A stretch of DNA of 64,000 nucleotides, taken from assembly GCA_965221775.1 (NCBI GenBank), contig CBDCSU010000006.1, positions 2,112,001 to 2,176,000 on the forward strand, in the 5' to 3' direction. Below the pieces are notes generated by a model. That model worked only from the letters and a program-made list of their open reading frames with translations, did not search any database and had not been told where the DNA came from. Positions 10,603 through 48,309 of the stretch are shown one piece after another. The position numbers and the translations under genes were made by a program. Origin of the DNA: Candidatus Latescibacterota bacterium. Lineage in GTDB: Bacteria > Latescibacterota > UBA2968 > UBA8231. The stretch's first letter is position 1. The number at the start of each line of letters is the position of its first letter.

Positions 10603-11337
10603 TCAGAGCCCCCGTTCCTGGATGATGTTCTCGGTCACCACGCGGCCGTCGAAGAGGTGGATGATGCGGTGGGCGTGGTCGGCGTAGGCCGGCGAGTGGG
10701 TGACCATGACGATGGTCGTGTCGGACTCGTTCAGCTCCGTGAGCATGGCCATCACCTCGTCGCCGTGGCGGGAGTCGAGGTTGCCCGTGGGCTCGTCGGC
10801 CAGGATCAGCCGGGGCTTGGCGACGACGGCGCGGGCCACCGCCACCCGCTGCTGCTGGCCGCCGGAGAGCTGCTGCGGGAAGTGCTTCTCCCGGTGGGCG
10901 ATCTGCACCTGGTCGAGGGCCTCGGCGACGCGTTGCCGCCGCTCGCCGGCGGGCAGGCCCAGGTAGAGCAGGGGCAGCTCCACGTTCTCGTAGACGGTGA
11001 GCTCGTCGATGAGGTTGAAGCTCTGGAAGACGAAGCCGATCGTCCCCTTGCGCAGGTTGGCGCGGTTGCGCTCGGAGTACGAGGCCACCTCCTCCCCGCA
11101 CAGCCAGTACTCCCCCTCCGTCGGGTTGTCGAGCAGGCCGAGGAGGTTCAGCAGCGTCGACTTGCCGCATCCCGAGGGCCCCATGATGGCCACGAACTCG
11201 CCCTCGTGGATCTCGATGTTGACGTTGTCCAGGGCCGTGGTCTCCACCTCCTCGGTGGTGAAGAGCTTGCGCAACCCCTGGGTCCGGATCAGGGACTCCC
11301 TGTCGTTCCCGTTGCCGTTGGTCCTCTCGTCGGTCAT
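10603..11337 (-). CDS. ABC transporter ATP-binding protein (LolD/MacB-type)
   Basis: [32 protein letters not shown] motifs. Confidence 0.95.
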
Positions 11338-11374
11338 CGCCTGTTCTCCCTCTGTATGGGTTTGGTTCCGTGTG

Positions 11375-12721
11375 TCACTTGAGGACGAGGACGTCCATGT
11401 CCTCGCCGAAGCTCTCGTAGCCGGAGGTGATGACCCGCTCGCCCGGCTGCAGTCCCTCCAGCACCTCGTAGACCTTGGGGTTCTGGCGGCCGAGGCGGAT
11501 GTCCCGCCTCACGGCGCGGTCGCCGGAGGGCTCGAGCACGTAGGCCCAGTGTCCGCCGGTGGCTTGGTAGAACCCGCCCCGGGCGACCTGGGTGGCCTCC
11601 TCGAGATCCCCCAGCTCCAGGCGGATCTGCAGGGTCTGGCCGCGGCGGATGCCCTCCGGCGCGTCGCCCTCGAAGACCAGGTCGACCTCGAAGCGGCCCT
11701 CCTCCACCTCCGGGTAGACCTTGCGGATCACCAGGCCGAGGGGCTGGCCGTCGTGGTCGAGCTGGCCGCGCTGGCCGCGGTCGACGCGGGCGATGTAGTG
11801 CTCGTCGATGGCGGCCTCGACCTTGAAGCCGTCGAGGATGTCGATCTTGCCCAGGCGCGTGCCCGACCCCTTGCTCTCGCCGATCTCGGCGGCGAGGGCG
11901 GTGAGTTGCCCGGAGACCGGGGCGCGCACGGTGAGGTCGTCGAGGCGCCGGCGGATGATCTCCAGGTTGCGCTCCATGCGCTCCACCGCCGCCCGGGCCT
12001 GCACCACCCGGTCCACGGCCAGCAGCGAGTCCTGGCGGTGGGTCTCGCGGGTGAGGGCGAGCTTGCGGGCGTTGTACTCGTAGTTGTCGCGCAGCTTCTC
12101 GTAGTCCTGCAGGGGCATGATCGCCGCCAGGTCCTCCCGCGACAGGGAGGAGTAGCGCTCGAAGTTGCGGCGGTCGATCTGCGCCCGGTACTCGATCTCC
12201 ATGAGGCGCTGCCGGGAGCCGAGCAGGTCCTGCTCCATGGAGAGGCGGTTGCTGTGCAGCTCCTCGATCTTGCGCTCCAGCCCCGACTCCTGCTGCAGCA
12301 CGTGCAGCTCGAGCTCGGGATTGGCCAGGCGCAGAAGGGGGTCGCCTTCCGTCACGTTGGCCCCTTCCTCGACGAAGAGGCGCTGAACCTGGCCGCTCTC
12401 GAGGGCGTCGAGGTAGACGGTGCGGATGGGCAGCACCGTGCCGCGGACGGGGGTGTACTCCTGGAAGGGGCCGTGCACGACCTCGGAGATCGTCAGCCGG
12501 TCGCGGTCGACGTTGAGCTTGCGCACGCCGCTGTCCTTGAGCAGCCCCCAGGCGGCGAAGACTACGAAGAGCCCGGCGCCGGCGGCCCCGGCGATCCTGC
12601 GCGGGGGCCACCTCCGCCTGCTTATCTTCCTGTCCATGGCGGCGCCGCTGCCGGTGCTGCCTTCGGCGGTGCCGCCATCGACGAGGGCCGAAGCGATGGG
12701 TATCTGAACGGTTGTGGGCAT
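11375..12721 (-). CDS. Efflux periplasmic adaptor / membrane fusion protein (HlyD/MacA family)
   Basis: N-terminal TM, lipoyl motifs (GQVQRLFVEEG, VRAPVSG), coiled-coil hairpin, GLQPGERVI. AGGAGA RBS before ATG 12721; alternative start 12637. Confidence 0.92.
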   Translation of the reverse strand: MPTTVQIPIASALVDGGTAEGSTGSGAAMDRKISRRRWPPRRIAGAAGAGLFVVFAAWGLLKDSGVRKLNVDRDRLTISEVVHGPFQEYTPVRGTVLPIRTVYLDALESGQVQRLFVEEGANVTEGDPLLRLANPELELHVLQQESGLERKIEELHSNRLSMEQDLLGSRQRLMEIEYRAQIDRRNFERYSSLSREDLAAIMPLQDYEKLRDNYEYNARKLALTRETHRQDSLLAVDRVVQARAAVERMERNLEIIRRRLDDLTVRAPVSGQLTALAAEIGESKGSGTRLGKIDILDGFKVEAAIDEHYIARVDRGQRGQLDHDGQPLGLVIRKVYPEVEEGRFEVDLVFEGDAPEGIRRGQTLQIRLELGDLEEATQVARGGFYQATGGHWAYVLEPSGDRAVRRDIRLGRQNPKVYEVLEGLQPGERVITSGYESFGEDMDVLVLK

Positions 12722-12764
12722 GATGCTTGCAGTTTCTCCTGTTGCACGCTCTGCGATCGCAGAC

Positions 12765-12780
12765 CGCAAGATGCATGCCA
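12765..12780 (-). promoter_or_regulatory. sigma54 (-24/-12) promoter of the adaptor-ATPase operon
   Basis: Minus strand TGGCATGCATCTTGCG has exact GG-N10-GC spacing. Confidence 0.8.
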
Positions 12781-12847
12781 TTTCCCCCAAGATACTGGAG
12801 CGCAACAGGATGAGCACTTTTGGCCCGAACCGCCCGAGAGACGGAGG

Positions 12848-12885
12848 TGCACGCCGGCGATACACGCGGTGTCCGTTGGCGTACA
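12848..12885. promoter_or_regulatory. Putative bEBP enhancer (UAS), tandem sites
   Basis: TGCACGCCGGCGATACA-cgcgg-TGTCCGTTGGCGTACA contains TGT-N10-ACA and matches 48273-48309. Confidence 0.65.
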
Positions 12886-12898
12886 CCGGGAGGCTGTC

Positions 12899-14284
12899 AT
12901 GAGGCCCGCCGCCGAGCCCAGGGTCCTGGTCGTCGACGACGATCCGGACGTCCTCGTCGCCGCCCGGCTGCTGCTCAAGCAGGAGGGCTACCGGGTCCGC
13001 ACCGAGGCCGACCCCCACGTGATCCCCGCGGTGCTGCGCGACGATGCGCCCGACATCGTGCTCCTGGACATGAACTACAGCCAGGACGCGGCCTCGGGCC
13101 GCGAGGGGTTCTACTGGCTGCAGCAGATCCGCCAGCTGGACCCCGAGGCGGTGGTCATCCCCATCACCGCGTACGGCGACGTGGAGATGGCGGTGCGCGC
13201 CGTCCGCGAGGGGGCGGTGGACTTCGTCCTCAAGCCGTGGCAGAACGAGAAGCTGCTGGCCACCCTGTCGGCGGCGGCGCAGCTGCGCCGCTCGCGGTCG
13301 GAGGCCCGGGGCCTGCGCTCGCGCCAGGACCAGCTGGCCGCCGACCTCGACCAGCCCTTCGTCGACATCATCGGCGACTCGCCGCCCATGCGCGAGATCT
13401 TCGACACCATCGCCAAGGTCTCCGCCACCGACGCCAACGTCCTCATCCTCGGCGAGAACGGCTCCGGCAAGGAGCTGGTGGCCCGCGAGATCCACCGCCG
13501 CTCGGCGCGCGCCGGCGAGGTCTTCATCTCCGTCGACATGGGCGCCGTCTCCGAGAGCCTCTTCGACAGCGAGCTCTTCGGCCACGTGAAGGGCGCCTTC
13601 ACCGACGCGCGCTCGGACCGCGCCGGCCGCTTCGAGGTCGCCTCGGGCGGCACCCTGTTCCTCGACGAGATCGGCAACCTGCCGCTGCCGCTGCAGGCCA
13701 AGCTGCTCACCTGCCTGCAGAGCCGCGAGGTGGTGCGCGTCGGCTCGAACAAGCCGGTCCCCATCGACGTGCGCCTCCTGTGCGCCACCAACATGCCGGT
13801 GTACGACATGGTCGGCGAGGGAGGCTTCCGCCAGGACCTGCTCTACCGCATCAACACGATCGAGGTGCGCATCCCGCCCCTGCGCGAGCGCCCCGGCGAC
13901 ATCGAGGCCCTGGTGGACCACTACCTCGACCAGTACGGGAAGAAGTACGGCCGCCCGGTGCGCGGCCTCTCCCGCGGCGCCCTGGAGAAGCTGCGCGCCT
14001 ACGCCTGGCCGGGGAACGTGCGCGAGCTGCAGCACGCCGTGGAGCGCGCCGTCATCATGGCCGAGGGACCCCGGCTGGAGGCCGACGACTTCCTGCTCAC
14101 CGCGCCCGGACCGGCCCCCGCGGGGGAGGCGGAGAGCTTCGACAGCTACAACCTCGAGGACGTGGAGCGGGTGGTCATCGAGCGCGTCCTGCGCAAGCAC
14201 CAGGGCAACGTCAGCCACGCCGCCCGCGAGCTGGGCCTGACGCGCACCTCCCTCTACCGGAGGATGGAGAAGTATGGCCTCTGA
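12899..14284 (+). CDS. sigma54-dependent NtrC-family response regulator (REC-AAA+-Fis HTH)
   Basis: VVDDD, LLDMN, KPW, GENGSGKE, ELFGHVKGAFTDA, FLDEIG, WPGNVREL and a C-terminal HTH. Confidence 0.95.
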   Translation: MRPAAEPRVLVVDDDPDVLVAARLLLKQEGYRVRTEADPHVIPAVLRDDAPDIVLLDMNYSQDAASGREGFYWLQQIRQLDPEAVVIPITAYGDVEMAVRAVREGAVDFVLKPWQNEKLLATLSAAAQLRRSRSEARGLRSRQDQLAADLDQPFVDIIGDSPPMREIFDTIAKVSATDANVLILGENGSGKELVAREIHRRSARAGEVFISVDMGAVSESLFDSELFGHVKGAFTDARSDRAGRFEVASGGTLFLDEIGNLPLPLQAKLLTCLQSREVVRVGSNKPVPIDVRLLCATNMPVYDMVGEGGFRQDLLYRINTIEVRIPPLRERPGDIEALVDHYLDQYGKKYGRPVRGLSRGALEKLRAYAWPGNVRELQHAVERAVIMAEGPRLEADDFLLTAPGPAPAGEAESFDSYNLEDVERVVIERVLRKHQGNVSHAARELGLTRTSLYRRMEKYGL

Positions 14285-15632
14285 CCGGCCGCGGAGCCGG
14301 CGATCGGTGTTCGGCAACTTCCGCGCGCAGGTGGTGCTGCGCGTCCTGCTCCTGGGCCTCTCCCTGATGCTCCTGCCGCTGTCGCTGCGGAACCTCGACT
14401 ACCCGGCGGTCCCCCTGGTCATCGGGGTCCTCGCGGCCTTCCAGGTGTGGTCGCTGATCCGCTTCGTGGACCGCACCAACCGCGACCTGGCGCGCTTCTT
14501 CCAGGCCGTGCGCTACTCCGACTTCTCCCAGACCTACGTCACCGGCGGCCTCGGGTCGTCCTTCGACGAGCTGAAGCGCTCCTTCAACGAGGTCCTCGAC
14601 GCCTTCCGGGCGACCCGCGCCGAGAAGGAGGAGCAGGCCCTCTACCTGCAGATGGTGGTGCAGCACATCGGCGTCGGCCTCGTCGCCTTCGACCGCCAGG
14701 GCGAGGTGTCGCTGATCAACAACGCCGCCAAGCGTCTGCTGCGGGTCAACCGCCTCGCCAACATCTCCGACCTCGAGTCGCGGGGCCCCGGCCTGGCGCA
14801 GACCCTGACCACCCTGGGCCCGCGCCGGAAGGCCCTGCTGCGCCTGGAGGAGGACGGCGAGGTCCGCCAGCTGGCCTGCTTCGCCGCCCTGTTCCGCACG
14901 GGGGAGGAGGAGCACCGCCTCGTCTCGCTCCACGACATCCAGTCCGAGCTGGAGGAGCAGGAGATGGAGGCCTGGCAGCGGCTGATCCGGGTGCTCACGC
15001 ACGAGATCATGAACTCGATCACGCCCATCGCCTCATTGTCCGCCACCGCCGAAGGGCTGCTGCAGCAGGAGACCATCGCCGGGGAGGACGTGAGCGACGT
15101 GCGCACCGCCGTGCACACGATCCAGCGCCGGTCGCAGGGTCTGCTGCAGTTCGTCGACGCCTACCGCGACCTCACGCGGGTGCCGGCCCCCGACTTCCAG
15201 ATCACCCCGGTGAGCGGCCTCTTCGAGCGCGTGACCCAGCTCATGGCCCACCAGTTCGAGGAGGCGGGGGTGGAGCTCGTCCACGCCGTCGACCCGCCCT
15301 CCCTGGAGGTGACCGCCGACCCCGGGCAGGTGGAGCAGGTGCTCATCAACCTGCTGCGCAACGCCTGCGACGCCGCCGGGGGGCGCGACGGGGCGCGGGT
15401 GGAGCTGACCGCCTCCATGGACCGGGACCGCGTCGTCATCGACGTCGCCGACAACGGGACCGGCATCGTCGAGGAGGCCCTGGACAAGCTCTTCATCCCC
15501 TTCTTCACCACCAAGCAGGACGGCTCGGGGATCGGCCTGAGCCTGTGCCGGCAGATCATGCGCCTGCACCGGGGCACGATCTCGGCGCGGTCCGAACCGG
15601 GGGTGCGGACGGAGTTCTCCTTGAGGTTCTGA
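14274..15632 (+). CDS. Membrane sensor histidine kinase
   Basis: Two TMs, PAS-like region, H-box LTHEIMNS, N-box NLLRNA, DNGTG, FFTTK, GSGIGL. Confidence 0.95.
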   Translation: MASDRPRSRRSVFGNFRAQVVLRVLLLGLSLMLLPLSLRNLDYPAVPLVIGVLAAFQVWSLIRFVDRTNRDLARFFQAVRYSDFSQTYVTGGLGSSFDELKRSFNEVLDAFRATRAEKEEQALYLQMVVQHIGVGLVAFDRQGEVSLINNAAKRLLRVNRLANISDLESRGPGLAQTLTTLGPRRKALLRLEEDGEVRQLACFAALFRTGEEEHRLVSLHDIQSELEEQEMEAWQRLIRVLTHEIMNSITPIASLSATAEGLLQQETIAGEDVSDVRTAVHTIQRRSQGLLQFVDAYRDLTRVPAPDFQITPVSGLFERVTQLMAHQFEEAGVELVHAVDPPSLEVTADPGQVEQVLINLLRNACDAAGGRDGARVELTASMDRDRVVIDVADNGTGIVEEALDKLFIPFFTTKQDGSGIGLSLCRQIMRLHRGTISARSEPGVRTEFSLRF

Positions 15633-15649
15633 TACGTTGCCATAAACGG

Positions 15650-16021
15650 GCTTTCGTCCGCCGCCACGTCACCCTTCGGCTGCAGCACCACGACCAGGCT
15701 TCGCTGCTGGCGGGCAAGCTGCACGCCGTCCTGCAGCGGCCCTGGCCCAAGGGCCGCGACTTCTACGACCTGATGTGGTACCTGAGCGATCCCGAGTGGC
15801 CGGCGCCCAACCTGGTCCTGCTCGACAACGCGCTGCGGCAGAGCGGATGGGAGGGGGATCTTCCGACCCGGCACACCTGGCGGGGTATCGTCCGCCGCCG
15901 GCTGCAGTCGGCAGACTGGGATCGCCTGAAGGCCGACGTGGGCCCCTTCCTCGAGCCGGGGGCCGACCTTGAGCTGATGACCCGGGAGAATCTGGAGCTG
16001 GCCCTTGGCGCGGGGCCCTGA
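15650..16021 (+). pseudogene. 5'-truncated AbiEii/AbiGii-family nucleotidyltransferase toxin fragment
   Basis: Frame reads SLLAGKLHAVLQRPWPKGRDFYDLMWYL...DVGPFL. There is no start codon or N-terminal half; it begins right after the kinase stop. Confidence 0.7.
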
Positions 16022-16142
16022 CGGCCTCGGTCTGCTGGTGGCGCAGGGATCCTGCTTGCGCCGGGTGCGCCCGGGCCGCCCCCGCCCCGGCTTGACGATG
16101 TCCATGTTCGCGCCTAACTCGGACCCGAGGAGGGAACCCGCC

Positions 16143-17405
16143 ATGGGCTTCGAGACGGCACGAGGGACGGCTGAGGGGATCACCGGCCGAGCGATCCTGT
16201 CCACCTTGACGATTTCGCTGCTGCCATTGGTTTCGTGCGGCGTCAACGAGGTGACCATTCGCATAGAGGGAGGCGACGGGAACAAGGTCCGGCTGGACGC
16301 CAGCGAGGTTCGGCCCGGATTCAACCGCGTCGTCGACGCGGGGTCCGTTTCCTTCGGAGATGTCGAGGAAGGGGCCTACGCCATCCACGTCGTGACGAGC
16401 CAGCGGCTGATGAGCGACAGCCTGAAGGTGGCGGCGGCGCCCCTCACGGGCGTTCGCAGCTATGGGTTGACGGTCACCATCCCCGGCGGCCACAACGGCG
16501 GCTATCAGCCCCAGGGAACCATCCTCTACACGGCCACGCCGGCGGCGGTGCTGGACTGGGATCTCTACACCATCCCCGCCGCCGGCGGGGAACCGACCCG
16601 CCTCACCGACACGCCCGAGTTCGAGCAGTACCCCGCATGGTCCGCCGACGGCCGGGAGATCGCCTTCGCCCGCGGCCACGTGACAACCAACATCGACATC
16701 TACGTGATGGCGGCGGAGGGCGGCGGCGAGCGCCGCCTCACCGAGCACCCCGAGCGGGACGAACAGCCGGCCTGGTCCCCCGACGGCGGCACCATCGCCT
16801 TCCTCAGCCATCGCGACGGCGACGTGGCGATCTGGCTCATGGACCCGGACGGCGGCAACAAGCGCAAGCTGGCGCTGGGACGGGAGCCGGCGTGGTCTCC
16901 GGACGGAAACCACATCGCCTTCACCTCCGGGCAGTACGACGGCAATGACGAGATCTACCTCATCGACGCCGATGGCTCCAACCTCCGGCGCCTCACCACG
17001 GACTCCCACTACGACTGGCACGCGGCCTGGTCTCCCGAAGGCCGCCGCCTGGCCTTCAACTCCGAACGTTTCGGGGGCGAGGAACTGATGCTGGCCGATG
17101 TCGAGAGCGGGAGGCAGGTGCGCGTCACGGTGGCCAAGCACACCTTCGAGCAGGACCCCGTCTGGTCACCGGACGGCCGGGCCCTGGCCTACCAGGGGAA
17201 GATGAACTTCCGGGAAGACGGCACCCTGGACGTGCACTTCAGCAACTGGACCGGCAAGCACACCCCCCAGGGCGCCTTCGACATCTTCATCGTGTCCCCC
17301 GTCGGCTTCGATTGGGATCACGTCGAGGAGCGCCCGGTCATGCCGGTCAATCTCACCAACACCCCCGACCGGGAGGAACGGTCGCCCAGGTGGCGTCCCT
17401 TCTGA
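16143..17405 (+). CDS. TolB-like PD40 beta-propeller lipoprotein
   Basis: Lipobox LVSC and five PAWSPDG-type repeats; GAGG RBS. Confidence 0.85.
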   Translation: MGFETARGTAEGITGRAILSTLTISLLPLVSCGVNEVTIRIEGGDGNKVRLDASEVRPGFNRVVDAGSVSFGDVEEGAYAIHVVTSQRLMSDSLKVAAAPLTGVRSYGLTVTIPGGHNGGYQPQGTILYTATPAAVLDWDLYTIPAAGGEPTRLTDTPEFEQYPAWSADGREIAFARGHVTTNIDIYVMAAEGGGERRLTEHPERDEQPAWSPDGGTIAFLSHRDGDVAIWLMDPDGGNKRKLALGREPAWSPDGNHIAFTSGQYDGNDEIYLIDADGSNLRRLTTDSHYDWHAAWSPEGRRLAFNSERFGGEELMLADVESGRQVRVTVAKHTFEQDPVWSPDGRALAYQGKMNFREDGTLDVHFSNWTGKHTPQGAFDIFIVSPVGFDWDHVEERPVMPVNLTNTPDREERSPRWRPF

Positions 17406-17409
17406 TCTG

Positions 17410-17613
17410 TCAGGACCGGGATCCGCAAGATGGGTCCGCATCGAGGGTTCCTCGCTCCCGCCGCTTCCTTGCCCAAGGTGTCTCCACGCCGTACTTCCGG
17501 CACAGCCGCCCGAAGCTGCGCAGGGTGATTCCGAGGGCGGCGCAAGCCTCCGTGTTGGTCGGGTACATGCGGGCGGCTCGCTCGATGGTCGCCTTGTCGA
17601 ATCCCCGATTCAC
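17410..17613 (-). CDS. Small putative helix-turn-helix protein (67 aa)
   Basis: VNRGFDKATIERAARMYPTNTEACAALGITLRSFGRLCRKYGVETP resembles a Fis-like HTH; purine-rich RBS before GTG 17613. Confidence 0.6.
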   Translation of the reverse strand: MNRGFDKATIERAARMYPTNTEACAALGITLRSFGRLCRKYGVETPWARKRRERGTLDADPSCGSRS

Positions 17614-17764
17614 CCCTTCCCCCCTTCTGGTGAAGGATGAAGGCCGGGCCAATCCCGGCGACTGGGACGAGGACCGTACAGCAACCCCCGTGCCTTCGGT
17701 CACGAAGGCACGCCGCAGGAGAAGGAGATGATGAGCCGTGGGAGTGTACCGTGTGGATGTGGCC

Positions 17765-17803
17765 GGATCCGCCACCGCCGGGGCGGGATCCGCCACCGCC
17801 GGG
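17765..17803. repeat. Tandem direct repeat (GGATCCGCCACCGCCGGG x2, period 21)
   Basis: Seen directly in the intergenic sequence. Confidence 0.8.
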
Positions 17804-17899
17804 CGGAAGGTGCAGGAAGGCGAGCGGGCTGGCCACCAGCATCAGGCGCGCCAACTCTCCGGCCAGGAGCCGGCCGATCTCGGCTCCCGTGCCCCTCAG

Positions 17900-19327
17900 T
17901 CACAACAACTCACCCCCGGCTCCGCGCCGGCCCTGAATGATGTTGTGACCAACGGTGAAGCAGAGCTCGCTCGCCGGGATGAAGTTCAGCGAGACTCCTC
18001 CCCGGGTTACAGTCGACCTGACAGTCCGTGAAGTAACCCACGCCTGCGTCAGGCCGTTGGCGTGGCAGAAAGCCACCAGGGGGTCGAGTTCCTCCGGTCG
18101 GGTCGGATACCGGTCGGACCATTTCACCTCAACGGCCCAGATCGGCTCTTGGGCCGCGTTGAGCCGTACCATGTCGACTTCACCGTTCCTCCAACGCCCG
18201 TAGAAGAGCTGCGCATCTTCGTCGTGGAAGTACTGTGAGAAGACCGCCGTTTCAGCCAGTGCGCCCAGCTCCGGCGCCTCGGGTGCCACCGGCGCGAAGA
18301 GCGCGGCCCGCATCGATGGGTTGGTCAGGTAGACCTTGAACCGGCGCGCTCTGCGAAACCGGCGTGCCGATTCATCTATCCGGTGGACCGCCCTTATCAG
18401 GAAGGCTGCCTCCAGGTACTCGACGTAGCGCTTGATCGTGTTCTTCGCGACACCTGAGCTGGTCGATAGATCCTGGAGAGACAACTCGCCGGCGGTGTTG
18501 AAAGCGAGCGTCGTGAAGAGCCTGTTGAGTTCCGGGACGTCACTGATTCCATACAGACTCGGCAAGTCTCTCAGCAGGACCTTGTCGATGATATCCCCCT
18601 TTATGAACCGCGACGGGTTGGCCTGTATCGCCTCCGAGAACACGACCTCGGGATATCCTCCGTAGTTGAGGTAGTGGAGAAAGTGGTCATTGAGGCGAGG
18701 GAGATCTTCAGCCTGAAACAGCGGCCGTCCCTGCACCTCTCGCTCCTTCAGGAGATCGCCCTCTCCCAACAGGTCGAGGTACTCGTGGAAGGTCAGTGGA
18801 GGGAGCAGGAAGTCAGTGAACCTTCCGGCTCCGGACTCCAGACTCTTCAGGCTCAGCGCCGCGGCGGCGGAGCCTGAGACGATGAGCTTGAGGGACGGCT
18901 CGCGATCGACCAGCGCCTTGAGATGGACCTCCCACTCCTTGAGATACTGCACCTCGTCGAAAAAGACATAGGCGGTCTGGCCTCGATCCGCGTCGGCGGC
19001 TTGACGATAGAGGTCGATGAGCGCTTCGAGTCCCAGATCGTTGTAGAGCGGGTGGTCGACCGAGACATACGCTATCTGTTTGGCGGCGACACCTTGGTCG
19101 AGCAGGGCCCCGATGGCGTGGTGAATGAGCACCGTTTTCCCGACCCGCCGGGGTCCCATGAGGACAACGGCCCGTCGCACCTCGAGTTCGGTGATCAGTG
19201 GAAAGAAGAGAGCGAAATAGGCGCGGGGCCTGAGTGTAGCGAGTTCATCGCCGATGCCCTGCCCTGCCCACCACGGATTCTCGGCTCGGATCCGTTCGCG
19301 CAGCTGCCCGGGGTCTATCTGCCGCAT
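17900..19327 (-). CDS. AAA+ superfamily ATPase (AAA_14 + DUF4143 type)
   Basis: GPRRVGKT, FFDEVQ, VSGS, GRF, GGYPE and a C-terminal EVD...AVEVKW nuclease-like motif. Confidence 0.9.
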   Translation of the reverse strand: MRQIDPGQLRERIRAENPWWAGQGIGDELATLRPRAYFALFFPLITELEVRRAVVLMGPRRVGKTVLIHHAIGALLDQGVAAKQIAYVSVDHPLYNDLGLEALIDLYRQAADADRGQTAYVFFDEVQYLKEWEVHLKALVDREPSLKLIVSGSAAAALSLKSLESGAGRFTDFLLPPLTFHEYLDLLGEGDLLKEREVQGRPLFQAEDLPRLNDHFLHYLNYGGYPEVVFSEAIQANPSRFIKGDIIDKVLLRDLPSLYGISDVPELNRLFTTLAFNTAGELSLQDLSTSSGVAKNTIKRYVEYLEAAFLIRAVHRIDESARRFRRARRFKVYLTNPSMRAALFAPVAPEAPELGALAETAVFSQYFHDEDAQLFYGRWRNGEVDMVRLNAAQEPIWAVEVKWSDRYPTRPEELDPLVAFCHANGLTQAWVTSRTVRSTVTRGGVSLNFIPASELCFTVGHNIIQGRRGAGGELL

Positions 19328-38621: not shown

Positions 38622-40964
<2,343 letters not shown>

Positions 40965-40994: not shown

Positions 40995-43361
40995 CTACCG
41001 CGTGTGCAGAGTCCTCACCGGGTTGGTCAGGGCAGCTCGCACAGCTTGGCCGCCCACCGTCAGCCCGGCGATGACGAAAGAGAGAGCGGCCGACACCATG
41101 AACAGGGCCACGCCGATCTCCACGCGATAGGCAAAGTCCTGCAGCCAGTGGTCGGCCAAGCCGTAAGCAATGGGCACGCTGAGGAGGAAGGCGATGGCAA
41201 CGGGTTTGGCGAAGTCGCCCAGCAGCATGGCTGTGACGCGCCCGGGGGAGGCACCGAAGACCTTGCGGATGCCGATCTCCCTGGTTCGTGCTTGAGCGGC
41301 GTGCGCGGCCAGACCGAAGAGTCCTACCGAGGCTACGGCGATGGTCAGAGAAAGGAGGAGGGCGAGCGCGCGTCCCACCTTCAGTTCATCGGAGTAGAAC
41401 TTCGCCGCCATTTCTTCGAGGGAGTATCGCCGGATGGGGCGGTACGGTGCGGCGGCTGCCCACTTGTCGTCGATCACTTCGAGGGCTTCTCCGAGATGCC
41501 CCGGGCGTACCCGCACGATAATGACACCCACCCAATCGGCAATCTGTCCCATGACCAGTGGTTCTATCCTCTTGCGCGGACCGTGGAAGTGGAAGTCCTC
41601 GATCACCCCCACAACTCGCGCTTGGCCGCGGTAACCGGGAATCGTCTCTCCCAGGGGTTCTTCCAACTCCAGCTTGCGCACGGCGGTCTCATTGATGACG
41701 ACGGCCCTGGCGTCCGCCGGCTCGTCGGTCAGTGGGCGTCCCTTGACCATGCGCAATCCCATGACTTCAACGAAGTCGCCATCTGCTTCATACACGTTGG
41801 CGATCAATGCCCCATCGGGATCCCAATAGCTCCGTCCCGAGCCCTGACCAGGTACTGTCATGGAGAGACTCACCCCGGCGACACGGCTGTCCTGAAGCAA
41901 CTCAGCTTTGAGAGCTCGGGCCTGGTCGGCGGTCAGCCCGCCATCACGGGGGTTGTAGACGACGACAACCTGTTCCGGCTCCAACCCGAGGACGGAGTTC
42001 TCTCGGAGCAGGTCCTGGATGAAACTGACTTGGTGCCAGATCAGCAGGGTCATCGTCATCAACGTCGCCGTAACGGTGAACTGCGCCACTACCAGACCCC
42101 GGCGCAGGCGCGCTCCTCCGATGCGCCCCCCGCGCTCCAGGACCGCCGGCTGAAAGCGTGCCACGACCCACGCCGGGTAGGCACCCGCTGCCAGCCCGAC
42201 CGCTATCGCCAGCAACGCTGCCCCGGCGCAAGTCGAGAGAGTCCAGCGGGGTGACCACTCAAAGTCGACTTCCCCAATCGCAGGCAGGAACGGAATCACG
42301 GTTTGTGCGATGGCAACGCCAAGGAACGTGGCCCCGATGCTCAGCAATACCGACTCTCCCAGGAGTTGGCGAATGAGCTGGGCGCGATGGGCGCCGAGGG
42401 CCTTGCGGATGCCTATCTCCTGCAGCCGTCCTTCCGCGCGCGCTGTCGCCAGGTTCACGTAGTTGAACCCGGCGATCGTCAGGAGCACCATGGCCAGGGT
42501 GGCGAACAGAGCGAGGTGCATTGGGTTGCCACTCGGGCCGAGGCTGTTGCCAGACTCCGTGTCGAAGTAGATCGATTCCAGAGGTTGCAGGGCGTAGGAT
42601 TCGTCAGCTTCGGGCAACCCCTTGGCTTCCTGAACGACATCCGAAATGCGCTCGGCTACCGTAGCGGGATCTGCACCGGGATTCAGCTGCACGAAGGTCA
42701 AGTAGGCCGAATAGTTCCAGCCCAACTGCCGTGCCCCCCTCTCTTTGTCAACAGTGGCCAGGGAGAGCAGTGCCGGGAACTGGAGCAATGAGTTGGAGGG
42801 CGGCTGGCCGAGGATGCCGGTGACCTCGCAATCGAAGGCTTCGTTGTAGCGGATGACCTGGCCCATGGGATCGTCCTCTCCAAACAGCCGCTGGGCCAAG
42901 GGTTCGGTCAGCACCATTGTGTAGGGGCGCGACAAAGCGGTCTTCGGGTCGCCGCGCAGGAGGGGCAAGCTGAACACATCGAAGACGCTGGATTCCGCCG
43001 AAAGAGGCTTCACACGAATCCCACTCTTGTCTCCGACTCTGAGCAGGCGCGGCAAGCTCGACTGGAATTGGACTGTTTCCTCGACTTCCGGCACTTGCTC
43101 CTTCAGGGCCGGCGCAAGAGGCAGCGGCATACTTGAAGAGATCCGGGCATCCCGATGCGCATCAGGCTCTTTCTGTACCAGTATGCGGTACAGTCGGTCT
43201 TTCTTCTCGTGGAAGTCGCCCACGGAGACTTGGTAGGCGGCCAACTGGATGACCAGCAGGCAGAGGGCCAGGCCGAGGGCCAGCCCGAAGAAATTGATCG
43301 CGGCGTAGCCGCGCTCTCGCCACAGGTGGCGGAAGGCGGTGGTCAGATAGTTTGTCAGCAT
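40995..43361 (-). CDS. MacB/FtsX-type ABC permease (member 3)
   Basis: Family motifs; ends NPVRTLHTR. Confidence 0.93.
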   Translation of the reverse strand: MLTNYLTTAFRHLWRERGYAAINFFGLALGLALCLLVIQLAAYQVSVGDFHEKKDRLYRILVQKEPDAHRDARISSSMPLPLAPALKEQVPEVEETVQFQSSLPRLLRVGDKSGIRVKPLSAESSVFDVFSLPLLRGDPKTALSRPYTMVLTEPLAQRLFGEDDPMGQVIRYNEAFDCEVTGILGQPPSNSLLQFPALLSLATVDKERGARQLGWNYSAYLTFVQLNPGADPATVAERISDVVQEAKGLPEADESYALQPLESIYFDTESGNSLGPSGNPMHLALFATLAMVLLTIAGFNYVNLATARAEGRLQEIGIRKALGAHRAQLIRQLLGESVLLSIGATFLGVAIAQTVIPFLPAIGEVDFEWSPRWTLSTCAGAALLAIAVGLAAGAYPAWVVARFQPAVLERGGRIGGARLRRGLVVAQFTVTATLMTMTLLIWHQVSFIQDLLRENSVLGLEPEQVVVVYNPRDGGLTADQARALKAELLQDSRVAGVSLSMTVPGQGSGRSYWDPDGALIANVYEADGDFVEVMGLRMVKGRPLTDEPADARAVVINETAVRKLELEEPLGETIPGYRGQARVVGVIEDFHFHGPRKRIEPLVMGQIADWVGVIIVRVRPGHLGEALEVIDDKWAAAAPYRPIRRYSLEEMAAKFYSDELKVGRALALLLSLTIAVASVGLFGLAAHAAQARTREIGIRKVFGASPGRVTAMLLGDFAKPVAIAFLLSVPIAYGLADHWLQDFAYRVEIGVALFMVSAALSFVIAGLTVGGQAVRAALTNPVRTLHTR

Positions 43362-43391
43362 GCTCGTCCTTTCGGGGCGGGATCCGCCCGT
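43362..43391 (-). repeat. Conserved intergenic spacer, copy 4
   Basis: ACGGGCGGATCCCGCCCCGAAAGGACGAGC. Confidence 0.9.
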
Positions 43392-45728
43392 CTACTCCGT
43401 GCGCAGTGTATCCACCGGGTTGGTCAGGGCCGCCCGCATCGCCTGGTGTCCCACCGTCAGTCCGGCGATGAGGAAGGACAGCGCTCCCGAGACCACGAAG
43501 AGGCCCACCCCCATCTCCACGCGATATGCGAAGTCGTGGAGCCACTGGTTGCCGAGCCACCAGGCGACCGGCACGCTGAGGACGAAGGCGAGGGCCACGG
43601 GCCGGGCGAAGTCGCGCAGCATCATGGCGGTGAGGCCGCCGGCAGAGGCGCCGAAGACCTTGCGCACGGCGATCTCGCGGGTGCGCTCGTGGGCGGCGTG
43701 GGCGGCCATGCCGAAGAGCCCCACGGCGGCGACGGCGATGGCCAGGACGAGGAACGCCGTGAGGGCGCGGCCCACCATCAGCTCTTCGGAGTAGAGTTTG
43801 CCGGCGACTTCCTCGAGGGAGTGGCGCTGGATGGGGCGGTACGGGGCGAGGGCGGCCCACCTTTCGTCGATGACCGCGAGGGCTTCTTCGAGATGCCCGG
43901 GTTGGACCCGAACGATGATGACGCCGGCCCATCCATAGAGTTGTTCCATGACCAGCGGCTCCACCTCGCTTCGCGGACCGTCGAAGTGGAAGTCCTCGAC
44001 CACGCCCACGACGCGCCTCTCGCCAAGGGTGGGGATCGTCTGGCCCAGTGGCTCCTCCAGTCCCATCACCCTGGCGGCGGTCTCGTTGATGACGAGGGCC
44101 TCGGCGTCGGCGGGTGCGTCGGTAAGGGCCCGTCCCCGGACCATGCGCAGGCCCATGATCGGGACGAAGTCGGCATCTACCTGGTACATCCAGATCGTCC
44201 GTCCTTCCGCCATGTGCGATGCTCTGGTGCCCTCGCCCGGTACCGTCATGGCCAGACTCGCCGCGGCGATGCGGCTGTCCTGAAGCAACTCCGTCTTGAA
44301 GGCCCGGGCCTGATCCATGGTGAGGCCGCGGTTTCGAACCACCACCACCTGTTCCGGCTCGGACCCAAGGATGGAGTCCTCGCGGAGGAGGTTGTCCACG
44401 TAGGTGAGTTGGTGCCACATGAGCAGCGTCATCGACAGCAACGCCGTGGTGGCCGTGAACTGGGTCACCACCAGGCCCCGGCGCAGGCGCGCACCTCCCA
44501 GGCGGCTTCTGCCCAGGTTGGCCGTCGGCTGCATGCGCGCCACGACCCAGGCCGGATACGCCCCCGCCACCACTCCGACCGCCACTGCCAGCACCGCGCC
44601 CCCGACGCAGGTAAAGAGCGACCAGGGCAAGGTGGGCAGGTCGAAGGCGGATCCCGCGATGACGTGCATGAGCCGGAGCAGGACCCCTGTCAGGACAGCT
44701 CCCAGGATCGTCGCCGCCGTGCTCATCAGCACCGACTCGCTCAGCAGCTGGCGGATGAGCTGGCCGCGATGGGCGCCGAGGGCCTTGCGCACGCCGATCT
44801 CGTGAATGCGTCTCCCCGCCCGGGCCGTAGCCAGGTTCACGTAGTTGACGCCGGCGATGGTGAGGATCACCACGGCGAGGATGGCGCTCAGGGCGAGGTA
44901 CATGGGATTGCCGCTCGGGCCGATGGTGCTGGACGCCTCCGTGTCGAAGTAGACCGACTTCAGGGGCTGCAGGACGTAGGAATCGGTCACTTCGGGCCAC
45001 CCCGATGCTTCCTTGACGATGCCGGGAATGCGCGCAGCCGCGGCCACCGCGTCGGCACCGGGCGTCAACTGCACGAAGGTCCGGAAGCCCGAGGCACTCC
45101 ATCCGGACTCCATCATCGGATTCACCTCGTACTGCGTGGCGAAGGAGATCAGCGCCGAGAACTGGAGCAGGGAACTGGAGGGCACCCGGCCGGCGATGCC
45201 CGTGATCTCGTAGTCGGACTCTCCCACGTTGACGACCTGCCCCATGGGATCGCTCTCGCCGAAAAGCCGGCGGGCCAGGGGCTCGGTGAGCACGATGGTG
45301 AAGGGACGCGACAAGGCCGTCCCGGGATCGCCGCGCAGGAGGGGGAGGCTGAACATGTCGAAGACGCCGGCCTCGGCGCCGCCGACCGTCTCGTATATCC
45401 CCTCCTTGTCACCGACCCTGAGCAATCGCGGGTAGCTCCAGCCGAAGCGCACCGCCGCCTCGACCTCGGGCAACTGCTCCTCGAGGGTTGGGCCCAGGGG
45501 CACGTGCATCCCCGACGTGAACCCGGCGTCCTGGGCATCCGACCTCAACACGCGGAAGACCCGGTCCTTCTTGTCGTGGAAGTCGCCCACGGAGAGCTGA
45601 TACGCCGCCAACTGGATGACCAGCAGGCAGAGGGCCAGGCCGACGGCCAAGCCGAAGAGGTTGATCGCCGCGTAGCCGCGCTCGCGCCACAGATGGCGGA
45701 GGGCGGTGGTCAGGTAGCTTCTGAGCAT
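43392..45728 (-). CDS. MacB/FtsX-type ABC permease (member 2)
   Basis: Start MLRSYLTTAL at 45728 by homology and RBS; ends NPVDTLRTE. Confidence 0.93.
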   Translation of the reverse strand: MLRSYLTTALRHLWRERGYAAINLFGLAVGLALCLLVIQLAAYQLSVGDFHDKKDRVFRVLRSDAQDAGFTSGMHVPLGPTLEEQLPEVEAAVRFGWSYPRLLRVGDKEGIYETVGGAEAGVFDMFSLPLLRGDPGTALSRPFTIVLTEPLARRLFGESDPMGQVVNVGESDYEITGIAGRVPSSSLLQFSALISFATQYEVNPMMESGWSASGFRTFVQLTPGADAVAAAARIPGIVKEASGWPEVTDSYVLQPLKSVYFDTEASSTIGPSGNPMYLALSAILAVVILTIAGVNYVNLATARAGRRIHEIGVRKALGAHRGQLIRQLLSESVLMSTAATILGAVLTGVLLRLMHVIAGSAFDLPTLPWSLFTCVGGAVLAVAVGVVAGAYPAWVVARMQPTANLGRSRLGGARLRRGLVVTQFTATTALLSMTLLMWHQLTYVDNLLREDSILGSEPEQVVVVRNRGLTMDQARAFKTELLQDSRIAAASLAMTVPGEGTRASHMAEGRTIWMYQVDADFVPIMGLRMVRGRALTDAPADAEALVINETAARVMGLEEPLGQTIPTLGERRVVGVVEDFHFDGPRSEVEPLVMEQLYGWAGVIIVRVQPGHLEEALAVIDERWAALAPYRPIQRHSLEEVAGKLYSEELMVGRALTAFLVLAIAVAAVGLFGMAAHAAHERTREIAVRKVFGASAGGLTAMMLRDFARPVALAFVLSVPVAWWLGNQWLHDFAYRVEMGVGLFVVSGALSFLIAGLTVGHQAMRAALTNPVDTLRTE

Positions 45729-45757
45729 GCGTGTCCTTTCGTGGCGGGATCCGCCGC
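45729..45757 (-). repeat. Conserved intergenic spacer, copy 5
   Basis: GCGGCGGATCCCGCCACGAAAGGACACGC. Confidence 0.85.
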
Positions 45758-48118
45758 CTACTCCGTGCGCAGCGTCTTCACCGGATTGGTCATGGAAGCC
45801 CGGATCGCCTGCTGGCTCACCGTCAGGCCGGCGACGAGGAAGGAGAGGGCGCCCGAGGTCAGGAACAGACCCACGCCGACCTCCACGTGGTAGGCGTAGT
45901 TCTGCAGCCACAGGCCGCCGAGCCACCAGGCGATGGGGATGCTGAGGAGGAAGGCGAGGCCCACGGGCTTGGCGAAGTCGCGCAGCATCATCGCCGTGAG
46001 GCCGGCGACGGAGGCGCCGAAGACCTTGCGCACGCCGATCTCGCGGGTGCGGTTCTGGGCCGTGTGGGCGGCCATGCCGAAGAGGCCCACGAGGGCCACG
46101 GCGATGGCGAAGGAGAGGAAGACGGTGAGGGCGCGGCCCATGAGCAGCTCCTCCATGTAGAGGCCGGCGAAGACCTCCTCGAGGGGCATGCGCTCGATGG
46201 GCCGGTGGGGGGAGAGGTCCGCCCACTTCGCGTCGATCAGCTCGTTGACCTCGTCGAGGTGCCCGGGCCGGGCGCGCACGGAGATTGGGCCGACGTTGGA
46301 GACGGGGGCCATGAGCAGGGGCTCCACCTTCTTGTGGGGGCCGTCGAAGTGGAAGTCCTCGACGACGCCCACGACGCGCAGGTCCCGGCCCATGTAGCCG
46401 GTGATCGCCTTGCCCAGGGGATCCTCCCACCCCATCCTGCGCACGGCGGTCTCGTTGATCACCGCGGCCCGGTCGTCGGAGGGATCATCGGTGAGGGCGC
46501 GGCCCCGGCTCATGCGCAGGCCCAGCATCGCGAAGAAGTCGCCGTCCACCCCGTAGGTCCTCACCTGCACCTTGGCCGCGTCCTCCCCCTGTACTTCGTA
46601 CCAGGTCCTGCTGAGGTTGCCGGGCAACGTCTCGGAGAGGCTGACCAGGGCGACCCGGCTGTCCTGGAGCAGCTCGGACTTGAGGACCCGGGTCTGCTCC
46701 AGCGTCAGTCCCTGGTTGCGGATGACCGTCACCTGCTCCGGCTCGAACCCGAGGGAGGAGTCGCGGCGGAGCAGGTCCTGCACGTAGTCGACCTGGCTCC
46801 AGATGAGCAGGGTCATCGTCATCATGGCGGCGGTGATGGTGAACTGTCCCACCACCAGGACCTGGCGCAGGCGGGCGCCGCCGGAGCGGCGGCGGCGGAC
46901 CACGGCGGCCGGCTGGAAGCGCGCCACCAGCCAGGCCGGGTAGGCGCCGGCCGCCAGTCCGACCCCGAGGGCCAGGGCCGCGGCCCCGGCGGCGGCGGGG
47001 ATCGTCCAGCGCATGAAGGGCAGACCGATGTCCATTCCCGTGATCAGGGCGGGGAGGCGCACCAGGATCTGGGTCGCGGCGGCGCCCAGGAGCGTCGCCA
47101 CGGCGCTGAGCACCACCGACTCGCACAGGAGCTGGCGGATGAGCTGTCCGCGCTGGGCGCCGAGGGACTTGCGCACGCCGATCTCGTGGGTGCGCCGGTC
47201 GGCCCTCGCCGTGGACAGGTTCACGTAGTTGACCCCGGCGATGGCCAGGATCACCGCCGCCAGCACGGCGCAGATCGCCAGGTACAGGGGGTTGCCGCTG
47301 GGACCGAGGTTGTTGGGCACCTCCGAGTCGAAGCGGATCGACTTCAGCGGCTGCAGCTTGTAGGCGCGACCCTCCTCCTCCGGCATACCCGTGAGTTCCT
47401 CGGCCATGGCGGGCAGGCGCGCGGCGATGGCGGCCGGGTCGGCGCCGGGGCCCAGCTGCACGTAGGTGATGAAGGCCCTGCTGCTCCTCGACCCCATCAT
47501 GGCGCGGCTCTCCTCGTACATGGTGGCGAAGGAGAGGAGCGCGGTGAAGTCGAGGAGGGAGTTCGGTGGCGGTTGAGCGACGATGCCCGTGACCTCGCAG
47601 TCGTACTCCTCGTCGACGCGGATCAACTGCCCCATGGGGTCGTCGTCGCCGAAGAGGCGGCGGGCCAGGGGCTCGGTGAGGACCATGGTGTAGGGGCGGG
47701 TCAGGGCCGTCTCCGGGTCGCCCCGCAGCAGGGGGAAGCCGAAGACCTGGAGGACGCCGTCCTCCGCCATCAGCACCCAGTCGGAGAGCGACTCCTTGCC
47801 GGCGAGCCGGAGCTGCGTCGGCCACCTCCCTCGGAAGCGGACCGCTTCCTCCACCTGGGGCAGCTGATCCTCGAGGGCCGGGCCCATGTGGATGGGCAGA
47901 CTCGTGTTGAACCCGCCGCCGCGCCACGCGGGACCCAGGACGCGGTAGACGCGGTCCCCGTTCTCGTGGAAGGTCCCCACGGACAGCTGGTGGGAGGTGA
48001 ACTGGATGATCAGCAGGCAGAGGGAGAAGCCGAGGGCGAGTCCGAAGACGTTGATCGCCGCGTACCCGCGTTCCCTCCACAGCAGGCGAAGCGCCGTTGT
48101 CAGGTAGTGAGCCAGCAT
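45758..48118 (-). CDS. MacB/FtsX-type ABC permease (member 1, first in operon)
   Basis: Start MLAHYLTTAL at 48118 with GAGGAAAGGGA RBS; ends NPVKTLRTE. Confidence 0.93.
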   Translation of the reverse strand: MLAHYLTTALRLLWRERGYAAINVFGLALGFSLCLLIIQFTSHQLSVGTFHENGDRVYRVLGPAWRGGGFNTSLPIHMGPALEDQLPQVEEAVRFRGRWPTQLRLAGKESLSDWVLMAEDGVLQVFGFPLLRGDPETALTRPYTMVLTEPLARRLFGDDDPMGQLIRVDEEYDCEVTGIVAQPPPNSLLDFTALLSFATMYEESRAMMGSRSSRAFITYVQLGPGADPAAIAARLPAMAEELTGMPEEEGRAYKLQPLKSIRFDSEVPNNLGPSGNPLYLAICAVLAAVILAIAGVNYVNLSTARADRRTHEIGVRKSLGAQRGQLIRQLLCESVVLSAVATLLGAAATQILVRLPALITGMDIGLPFMRWTIPAAAGAAALALGVGLAAGAYPAWLVARFQPAAVVRRRRSGGARLRQVLVVGQFTITAAMMTMTLLIWSQVDYVQDLLRRDSSLGFEPEQVTVIRNQGLTLEQTRVLKSELLQDSRVALVSLSETLPGNLSRTWYEVQGEDAAKVQVRTYGVDGDFFAMLGLRMSRGRALTDDPSDDRAAVINETAVRRMGWEDPLGKAITGYMGRDLRVVGVVEDFHFDGPHKKVEPLLMAPVSNVGPISVRARPGHLDEVNELIDAKWADLSPHRPIERMPLEEVFAGLYMEELLMGRALTVFLSFAIAVALVGLFGMAAHTAQNRTREIGVRKVFGASVAGLTAMMLRDFAKPVGLAFLLSIPIAWWLGGLWLQNYAYHVEVGVGLFLTSGALSFLVAGLTVSQQAIRASMTNPVKTLRTE

Positions 48119-48190
48119 GATCGTTCCCTTTCCTCTTCCTGGTTTCCGTCCGGGCCCGCCGATCGGCGGATAGCCCTCACCCGACCTTTT

Positions 48191-48206
48191 AGCAACAACC
48201 GCGCCA
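48191..48206 (-). promoter_or_regulatory. sigma54 (-24/-12) promoter of the permease array
   Basis: Minus strand TGGCGCGGTTGTTGCT has exact GG-N10-GC spacing. Confidence 0.75.
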
Positions 48207-48272
48207 CGGTGCGTTACTCTTTCTCCGGGAACCAGTTGCGGCGATCTGTCCCGAATCGGCCGGCGGACTGGA

Positions 48273-48309
48273 TGGCCGCTGGCGATACAGAAGTGTCCAC
48301 AGACGGACA
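48273..48309. promoter_or_regulatory. Putative bEBP enhancer (UAS), tandem sites
   Basis: TGGCCGCTGGCGATACA-gaag-TGTCCACAGACGGACA contains the palindrome TGTCC-N6-GGACA and matches 12848-12885. Confidence 0.65.

Follow-up and report, generated by a model that had tools for sequence, protein, structure and literature searches.

Sequence analysis of a 64,000-nucleotide (nt) stretch of DNA from an uncultured Candidatus Latescibacterota bacterium, hereafter the window (G000:C6:2112001-2176000 of the source genome G000, which has 5.36 Mb, 70% G + C and 6 contigs), revealed two transcription units that together probably encode a sigma-54-dependent type VII (MacB-family) ATP-binding cassette (ABC) export system working by the mechanism proposed below. 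One unit, the adaptor operon, carries a periplasmic adaptor and a stand-alone ATPase (ATPase1); the other, the permease array, carries eleven permeases (P01 to P11), a second ATPase (ATPase2) and a secreted protein. Comparison with related genomes strongly supports the assignment of both units to a single regulon, that of the NtrC-type activator encoded next to the adaptor operon. The features concerned are the following.

10603-11337, minus strand: ATPase1, a stand-alone MacB/LolD-type ABC ATPase of 244 amino acids (aa), second gene of the adaptor operon (PF00005, E 1.4e-36)
11375-12721, minus strand: periplasmic adaptor, a HlyD/MacA-type membrane-fusion protein of 448 aa (HlyD_3, E 3e-13; HlyD_D23; biotin-lipoyl-like domain)
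12765-12780, minus strand: predicted sigma-54 -24/-12 promoter of the adaptor-ATPase1 operon, TGGCATGCATCTTGCG
12847-12886, no strand assigned: putative enhancer of the adaptor promoter (proximal dyad 12847-12864, distal dyad 12869-12886; centres at about -101 and -123)
12899-14284, plus strand: NtrC-family sigma-54 activator with receiver, AAA+ and Fis-type helix-turn-helix (HTH) domains (Sigma54_activat, E 1.7e-63; Response_reg; AAA_lid_14; HTH_8)
14274-15632, plus strand: sensor histidine kinase, PAS + HisKA + HATPase_c (domain search, with hydropathy for the N-terminus)
19799-29741, minus strand: permeases P01 (19799-22246), P02 (22338-24803), P03 (24813-27260) and P04 (27276-29741), deep paralogs
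29744-30637, minus strand: secreted CBM9-like protein, 2 nt upstream of P04 (CBM9_1, E 2.3e-11)
30657-33083, minus strand: permease P05 (domain searches)
33101-33766, minus strand: ATPase2, a MacB/LolD-type ABC ATPase of 221 aa within the array (PF00005, E 1.7e-34)
33786-48118, minus strand: permeases P06 (33786-36137), P07 (36169-38592), P08 (38622-40964), P09 (40995-43361), P10 (43392-45728) and P11 (45758-48118), together the P06-P11 block
48191-48206, minus strand: predicted sigma-54 -24/-12 promoter of the permease array, TGGCGCGGTTGTTGCT
48272-48310, no strand assigned: putative enhancer of the array promoter (proximal dyad 48272-48289, distal dyad 48293-48310; centres at about -100 and -121)

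Domain searches bore out the inventory given in an initial annotation of the window, namely one HlyD-type adaptor, two MacB/LolD-type ATPases, eleven intact permeases, an NtrC-type activator and a kinase. The same searches agreed with its layout, in which an adaptor operon without a permease and an array without an adaptor lie about 35 kb apart, and activator and kinase, on the plus strand, are divergent from the adaptor on the minus strand.

Both -24/-12 boxes were found on the minus strand at the places assigned to them by that annotation, TGGCATGCATCTTGCG at 12780-12765 and TGGCGCGGTTGTTGCT at 48206-48191. In each, the GG and GC elements are 10 nt apart and the box matches TGGCAC-N5-TTGCW; the distance to the start codon is 43 nt for the adaptor and 72 nt for the array. 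Transcripts are predicted to start near 12754 and near 48180, with leaders of about 33 nt and 62 nt, respectively. The source genome encodes rpoN (Sigma54_DBD 206.8 bits, E 5.1e-61; 508-aa open frame, G000:C5:573778-574254).

The upstream element described earlier, CGC(C/T)GGCGATACA...GTGTCC-N6-G(T/G)ACA, was found on the plus strand at 12847-12886 and 48272-48310, and its TGT-N10-ACA box starts 90 bp (adaptor) and 88 bp (array) from the promoter edge, as had been claimed. The element is a tandem dyad with the consensus TGT(C/A)C-N6-G(G/T)ACAC-N3/4-TGTATC-N6-GnnCA. GATACA-N3/4-GTGTCC occurs exactly twice in the 5.36-Mb genome, as does GTGTCC-N6-G[GT]ACA[CT], in both cases at these two enhancers. 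Among the 397 TGTATC sites genome-wide, two have a 9/9 distal dyad together with a sigma-54 box 83/84 bp downstream, and they are these same two; the next-best dyad scored 7 and had no sigma-54 box. The genome-wide scan for the enhancer plus -24/-12 pair, which the initial annotation had suggested, was thereby run, and only the adaptor and array sites qualified; over the 397 TGTATC sites, no further gene of the source genome was found to be preceded by the enhancer. The tandem dyads at about -100 and -122 of both promoters, genome-unique and with their spacing kept, are putative binding sites. Upstream sites of NifA and NtrC are dyads of the TGT-N10-ACA type, and the window resembles NtrC/NifA-type sigma-54 promoters in having such a dyad about 100-120 bp from GG-N10-GC and an activator of receiver-AAA+-HTH architecture. 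The adaptor enhancer ends 12 nt ahead of the activator start codon, and the bound activator would probably affect its own operon as well.

The initial annotation had staked its proposal on conservation of these motifs in related genomes, and they were conserved. The close relatives are metagenome-assembled genomes whose records are labelled Latescibacterota or Gemmatimonadaceae; G002, G004, G006 and G007 belong to the window's own genus, and g17 is a sister genus that includes G035. Adaptor orthologs (E <= 1e-100) were present in 21/41 related genomes, G000 included, and in 5/10 genomes of the genus. TGTATC lies 82-84 bp from the -24 TGG in 12/12 orthologous promoters, which represent four genera and comprise those of the adaptor in G000, G004, G002, G007, G006, G019, G011 and G035 and those of the array in G000, G007, G006 and G011. 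Across GC-rich and AT-rich genomes alike, the half-sites were conserved, and the N6 spacers and the stretch separating enhancer from promoter varied freely; in the array enhancers of G007, G006 and G011, too, the half-sites were retained with variable N6 spacers, and the dyad-to-box offset of the G006 array, 103 bp, equalled that of G007. The adaptor promoter box was unchanged in all five same-genus genomes holding the adaptor and was kept as TGGCATACATCTTGCT in G019 and TGGCCCAATTATTGCA in G011; G007 and G006 have the same array promoter sequence as the window, and that of G011 is TGGCACGGTTGTTGCA.

Gene order was less constant than the module. G007 has the order of the window. In G006 the array (C1:3435204-3446603) and the adaptor (C1:475839-477200) lie about 3 Mb apart, with the enhancer-promoter module kept at the array. 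In G011, kinase and activator are divergent from a block of three permeases followed by a receiver gene; a second enhancer-promoter then precedes adaptor, ATPase1, ATPase2 and three more permeases. Since parts up to about 3 Mb apart still keep the module, co-expression, and not gene adjacency, appears to be what selection maintains. In g17, the junction motif GGACAC-N3-TGTATC occurred 81 times in 12/12 genomes, against 3 times for the reversed control. In G035, the one g17 genome examined, it stands mostly ahead of dispersed permease genes: nine sites have the full tandem dyad, eight of them with TGGCAC or CGGCAC-N5-TTGC at the expected distance, and the nine sites precede five permease genes, the adaptor gene, an ATPase1-like gene and two genes outside the query set.

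The next-closest adaptors (37-46% identity) came from 34 loci of marine Bacteroidota, mostly labelled Flavobacteriaceae, in which the system is unsplit: kinase and activator are divergent from TolC, adaptor, ATPase1, one to five or more permeases and, in some loci, ATPase2. The activator was upstream and divergent in 30/34 loci, the other four being short contigs with the adaptor near the contig end; ATPase1 followed the adaptor in 33/34, permeases came next in 30/34, and ATPase2 closed the array in 4/34. The 1.4-kb gene ahead of the adaptor is of the OEP/TolC family in the one locus tested (L044, E 2.4e-47). The flavobacterial cis module likewise consists of tandem TGT-N10/11-ACA dyads, the second starting TGTAT, and 16/34 loci have these dyads with a TGGCA(C/T)-N5-T box exactly 80 bp downstream; of the rest, two had dyads but no box by regular expression and 16 gave no match, several being short of upstream sequence. 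The activators have a GAFTDA loop and the kinases a two-helix, minimal-loop N-terminus. These comparisons suggest that the unsplit flavobacterial operon is the ancestor-like form of a widespread, uncharacterised system and that the copy in the window has been rearranged.

A sceptical reading would take the shared upstream element as a chance match, or as the remnant of a duplicated promoter, with no regulatory role. The -24/-12 core taken alone fits that reading and counts against sigma-54 control: the window has 4 copies of TGGC-N7-TTGC where 2.03 would be expected, and 20/100 shuffles reached 4, a chance level for which the core was dropped as stand-alone evidence. The composite enhancer-promoter module, unlike the core box, is significant. 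It is confined to two sites of the genome, holds its spacing in 12/12 promoters of four genera across flanks that diverge from GC-rich to AT-rich, outnumbers its control by 81 matches to 3 in g17, and recurs as part of the same cassette in another phylum. On this comparative evidence the chance or remnant reading appears close to refuted, and we give it hardly any weight. Another sigma-54 core of the window, TGGCGTGGCTGTTGC within permease P02 (23681-23695, minus strand), has no enhancer and is probably a chance match.

The activator fell below every named NCBIfam equivalog cut-off, the best match being a PEP-CTERM regulator (402.8 versus 502.6 bits). Its sigma-54-contacting loop reads GAFTDA and not GAFTGA (13580-13600, residues ~230-236). 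GAFTDA was conserved in the 7 orthologs examined, from both phyla, and was found in 3/13 activator-like loops of the source genome (regular-expression matches). As judged by hydropathy only, the kinase N-terminus has two membrane helices with about 5 loop residues between them, and this topology and the juxtamembrane motif were found in 6/6 orthologs examined, three of them from Flavobacteriaceae. With hardly any external loop, the kinase may respond to pump activity or to the state of the membrane instead of binding a periplasmic ligand; sensing via the pump or the membrane, as in the Bce-type flux sensors, is plausible by analogy.

A PD40/TolB-like beta-propeller gene (16005-17405, plus strand) begins 372 nt past the kinase on the same strand and is kept beside the kinase in G007 with 92% DNA identity. 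G007 also has a third enhancer and sigma-54 promoter (L033 4900-5700, corresponding to window 17400-19800), which stand ahead of a single-domain receiver gene located between array and kinase; a receiver-like match was found at the corresponding place in G002 and G004. The source genome is without that receiver segment and has an AAA_14/DUF4143 ATPase gene (17900-19327) in its place.

In the adaptor operon, the translated adaptor shows an N-terminal hydrophobic anchor. A longer open reading frame (ORF) at 11334-12776 on the minus strand was considered as the adaptor and rejected as an Arg/Pro-rich shadow frame that overlaps the promoter and gives no family match even at E 10. ATPase1 has intact Walker A, Q-loop, LSGGQ, Walker B-E and H-loop motifs, and its orthologs come after the adaptor in relatives. 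Just downstream of ATPase1 there is an indel, the segment at 10156-10463 having about 300 nt in the source genome and about 20 nt in G007; a 115-aa ORF within or near it (10161-10508) has no family match.

The array runs from 48118 to 19799 on the minus strand over 28 kb, in the order P11-P10-P09-P08-P07-P06-ATPase2-P05-CBM9-like-P04-P03-P02-P01. Intergenic gaps are 2-91 nt (9-91 nt among P01-P04 and 29-31 nt within P06-P11), and a scan of 17500-34000 for terminators and sigma-70 promoters found nothing above the shuffled background. The CBM9-like protein has a signal-peptide-like N-terminus and may be a periplasmic partner of the permeases; its gene occupies the equivalent place in the G006 and G007 arrays (80-81% identity), and the source genome has five CBM9-like paralogs elsewhere. 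With the array permeases as tblastn queries against the source genome, relatives were found only in the array and at one paralogous locus.

All eleven permeases are full length, at 778-821 aa, and each contains both MacB_PCD and FtsX twice. P06-P11 are 56-79% identical to one another and P02/P04 76%, and all other pairs are 27-35% identical. P01-P04 have orthologs in G011 and G019 with 62-72% identity, and the closest G011 match of P06-P11 is only about 30% identical; P06-P11 thus look like a younger expansion. Conservation peaks at the N-terminal helix and at two REIGxRKxxGA coupling-helix regions and is lower in parts of the periplasmic domains. As the coupling-helix motif is conserved throughout the superfamily, its high conservation among the eleven permeases is no proof of a shared ATPase.

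Such a pattern could also mean that the array is an amplification in flux, with a few ancient permeases (the P01, P02/P04 and P03 lineages) functional and P06-P11 a recent tandem amplification of redundant or decaying copies. The similarity within P06-P11 and their want of a close G011 ortholog agree with this, as does array content, which is not the same in G000, G006 and G007: some copies are split or fragmentary, and G007 has one in-frame TGA. All eleven copies of the window, on the other hand, are full length with the complete domain set, and they differ mainly in periplasmic segments, the coupling-helix regions being conserved. Short RNA-library contigs also match P03, a weak point; DNA carry-over is possible. 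We judge decay of P06-P11 improbable.

For those contigs, three RNA-library runs and one DNA run were compared with 10500-30499 (assembled contigs, depth 2.6-8). Run X19 gave short, near-identical contigs over ATPase1 (10603-10867 and 10958-11274), the PD40 gene, the CBM9-like gene and P03, those on P03 (25360-25731 and 26414-26807) having no differences; the contigs of run X18 were 94-96% identical, one of them spanning 12434-13020. They show no starts, strand or co-expression, and apart from the weak point just given they were not used as evidence.

An AlphaFold2 model of P11 (predicted local distance difference test, pLDDT, 79.8; predicted template-modelling score, pTM, 0.71) has eight long membrane helices (17-45, 277-318, 323-352, 373-399, 412-450, 646-689, 704-738 and 749-775) and two periplasmic domains. 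A fold search with this model gave E. coli YbbP as the best whole chain (9ge6_A, E 2e-19, template-modelling score 0.59), followed by MacB, LolCDE and BceAB. By sequence profile, MacB was the best full-length match of the permeases (MacB chains, E 1e-21 to 1e-23).

ATPase2 is 52% identical to ATPase1 and stands in tandem with it in G011 and G035. All its catalytic motifs are intact, and its LSGGEQQ and NLNS variants are shared with the G011 ortholog. A degenerate ATP site was sought as the mark of an obligate heterodimer and rejected, both ATPases keeping all catalytic motifs; being complete in this respect, they neither support nor oppose an obligate heterodimer. Two conserved ATPase lineages accompany the fused permeases and the paralogous single-module locus has one, which suggests an ATPase1-ATPase2 heterodimer; the G019 locus has ATPase1 only.

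That paralogous system (G000:C6:299500-312200; L002: 3445-16144) forms one cluster of adaptor, ATPase, permeases, activator and kinase. Its single ATPase is 54% identical to ATPase1 and its NtrC-type activator (G000:C6:309.5-310.8 kb) is 42% identical to that of the window, and its permeases, about six in number, are single-module MacB_PCD+FtsX proteins. Its promoter reads TGGCACGGGATTTGTT, with tandem TGTCC-N6-GGAAA / TGTTC-N6-GGACAC sites 68 bp upstream.

The mechanism that we infer, as regards activator binding, start sites, a single transcript and pump assembly alike, is as follows. The kinase with almost no external loop would phosphorylate the NtrC-type activator, which would assemble on the tandem dyads about 100 and 122 bp upstream of the two -24/-12 promoters and drive sigma-54 open-complex formation at both. 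This would jointly switch on the adaptor with ATPase1 and the 28-kb unit of eleven eight-helix permeases, ATPase2 and the secreted CBM9-like protein. Each permease is an internally duplicated pseudo-dimer and, by analogy with YbbAP, would bind two ATPase subunits; joined by the common adaptor and by an outer-membrane duct whose gene lies elsewhere, it would form its own pump, the variable periplasmic domains setting what each pump handles. As substrates, the pumps would probably handle a variety of toxins, amphipathic or peptide, or of compounds embedded in the membrane. Of the co-induced combinatorial exporter put forward in the initial annotation, the single regulon of the adjacent activator stands on comparison with relatives, whereas the docking of shared parts keeps the standing of a proposal. 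That one adaptor and two ATPases would serve all eleven permeases is suggested by the part counts, the unsplit operon of relatives, the analogy with MacAB-TolC and YbbAP and the finding of no other enhancer-bearing gene.

The two units could alternatively be co-regulated and yet not be one machine. The array permeases would then work with ATPase2 alone and, like YbbAP, without an adaptor, extracting membrane compounds and passing them on to periplasmic partners, for example the CBM9-like protein, and the adaptor and ATPase1 would serve another permease. YbbAP, the best whole-chain match, is described in the accessible part of its report as working with a periplasmic enzyme and without an adaptor (PMC12646458), which also tells against a shared adaptor here; the array has its own ATPase and secreted protein, and no TolC is linked to it. 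Such a division of labour would nevertheless leave an adaptor operon without any permease, and in relatives one operon holds adaptor, ATPase1, ATPase2 and permeases, with TolC as its first gene in the single flavobacterial locus tested. The CBM9-like gene, moreover, was limited in the locus comparisons to the window's own genus (G002, G006 and G007). We consider the adaptor-free arrangement unlikely.

Besides the YbbAP precedent and the chance-level core, several observations weigh against the preferred reading of one sigma-54-controlled exporter in two units. Neither unit has an outer-membrane duct gene, and none was found behind the enhancer. The initial annotation had suggested a search for a TolC gene with the same enhancer, and this came out negative: the source genome has about 11 OEP-family genes (22 domain matches), none with the enhancer among the 397 TGTATC sites and none in the window. 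To build a complete tripartite pump, the system would therefore have to draw on a TolC that is unlinked and under different regulation. Further FtsX-domain genes occur elsewhere in the source genome, several of them adjoining an ABC ATPase match. The 20-kb locus of G019 has only one of the two ATPases, as noted above, and G037, an assembly 95% complete in 280 contigs, has nine junction motifs with no adaptor ortholog by this query (best E 2.2e-9). Finally, the similar site of the paralogous system, TGTTC-N6-GGACAC, makes cross-talk from its activator possible.

A wider reading is offered tentatively, and may well prove wrong: that the duplicated 'orphan' permeases are swappable heads of one modular exporter, with a shared adaptor and ATPase pair, wired in trans by one sigma-54 enhancer. 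Its extension to eleven eight-helix permeases here and dozens in sister genera is just as tentative. In such an exporter an ATPase heterodimer would possibly match the asymmetric N- and C-halves of the permease.

Among known systems, the type VII ABC transporter MacAB-TolC of E. coli, A. baumannii and A. actinomycetemcomitans shares with the window the MacB_PCD + FtsX permease fold, a MacB/LolD-type ATPase and a HlyD-type adaptor, and TolC is the first gene of the orthologous operon in the single flavobacterial locus tested. It differs in several ways. In the window the ATPases are separate proteins (244 and 221 aa) and the permease is a fused eight-helix pseudo-dimer, where E. coli MacB joins ATPase and permease in one protein that works as a homodimer; the adaptor is in a separate operon with a shared enhancer; there are eleven alternative permeases, two ATPase types and no linked TolC; and the predicted regulators are sigma-54 and an NtrC-type activator. 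The MacAB regulator named in a review is PhoPQ (PMC5985334).

YbbAP-TesA (PDB 9ge6) resembles the window in that its permease is one polypeptide, has two periplasmic domains and engages two ATPase subunits through two coupling helices. According to the part of the report available, YbbAP has two ATPase subunits per permease and YbbP has 10 helices, arranged 4+2+4 (PMC12646458). The P11 model, by contrast, has 8 (4+4), with a sequence identity of 14%, and YbbAP is partnered by a periplasmic hydrolase in place of an adaptor and has one ATPase species only.

BceAB-BceRS of Firmicutes likewise joins a type VII permease to a two-component system whose kinase has two helices and a minimal loop; in the accessible text, BceB has 10 helices and one extracellular domain, and the Bce permease is said to co-evolve with its two-component system (PMC5985334). 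In the window the regulator is instead a sigma-54 activator, the permease has 8 helices and two periplasmic domains, and an adaptor is present. The DarBCD assignment falls short of its cut-offs, with the ATPases at 263 bits (ATPase1, for which DarD is the best NCBIfam match) and 251 bits against 375 for DarD, and the permeases at 43-64 bits against 700 for DarB.

The ADOP family (TIGR03434) is described as a duplicated permease without an adjacent ABC ATPase gene, hence 'orphan'. Like the window, it comprises duplicated MacB-like permeases in large paralogous arrays. The ADOP label given in the initial annotation is approximate: 11/11 permeases match TIGR03434, with scores of 227-292.4 bits that lie below the cut-off of 622.3. 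The window permeases, furthermore, are not orphans, an ATPase being in the array and the adaptor and ATPase1 being tied to it by the shared enhancer. From the text accessible to us, genomic island 43 of Psychroflexus torquis (42 kb) has ten ADOP paralogs and ATP-binding transporters and is highly translated, its role unknown (PMC3914696), and Dyadobacter genomes hold 28-33 ADOP copies (PMC11573002).

The link between sigma-54 and FtsX-type permeases is already published. A 2025 study reported COG0577/COG1136 antimicrobial-peptide-type ABC permeases and ATPases as enriched among predicted sigma-54 targets and, in its accessible part, claims the first such link (PMC12316311); that part mentions neither a cognate activator nor an enhancer, a fixed spacing or a regulon in split or dispersed form. 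Our literature search found no paper on this activator, this enhancer, the fixed spacing or the split or dispersed regulon, and a search within PMC3162934 gave no match.

The locus is of value as a clear case of a MacB-family export system whose parts are split and appear to be controlled by sigma-54 through a classical enhancer. In Bacteroidota, Acidobacteriota and related phyla, few genes without a known role have expanded as much as the duplicated MacB-like ('ADOP') permeases, which are called orphans since many have no adjacent ATPase. For these the window offers a testable wiring diagram, with one two-component sigma-54 activator, one enhancer spaced at 80-84 bp, one adaptor, two ATPases and many clustered or dispersed permeases, and the enhancer motif can be used to list putative regulon members in any genome with the system. 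Since cultured Flavobacteriaceae have the same cassette, the inducing signal and the substrates are open to experiment.

Elsewhere in the window, a UvrD-type helicase gene (51348-55061, minus strand) was found as a 1237-aa open frame with helicase domains from residue ~590; its N-terminal part has no family match and may partly be a frame artefact. A toxin-antitoxin-like pair (60278-60913, minus strand) consists of a Gp49/DUF891-type gene followed by an HI1420-type HTH antidote. In DNA runs labelled as sponge or marine metagenomes, at least half of the sampled words of 10500-20400 were present.

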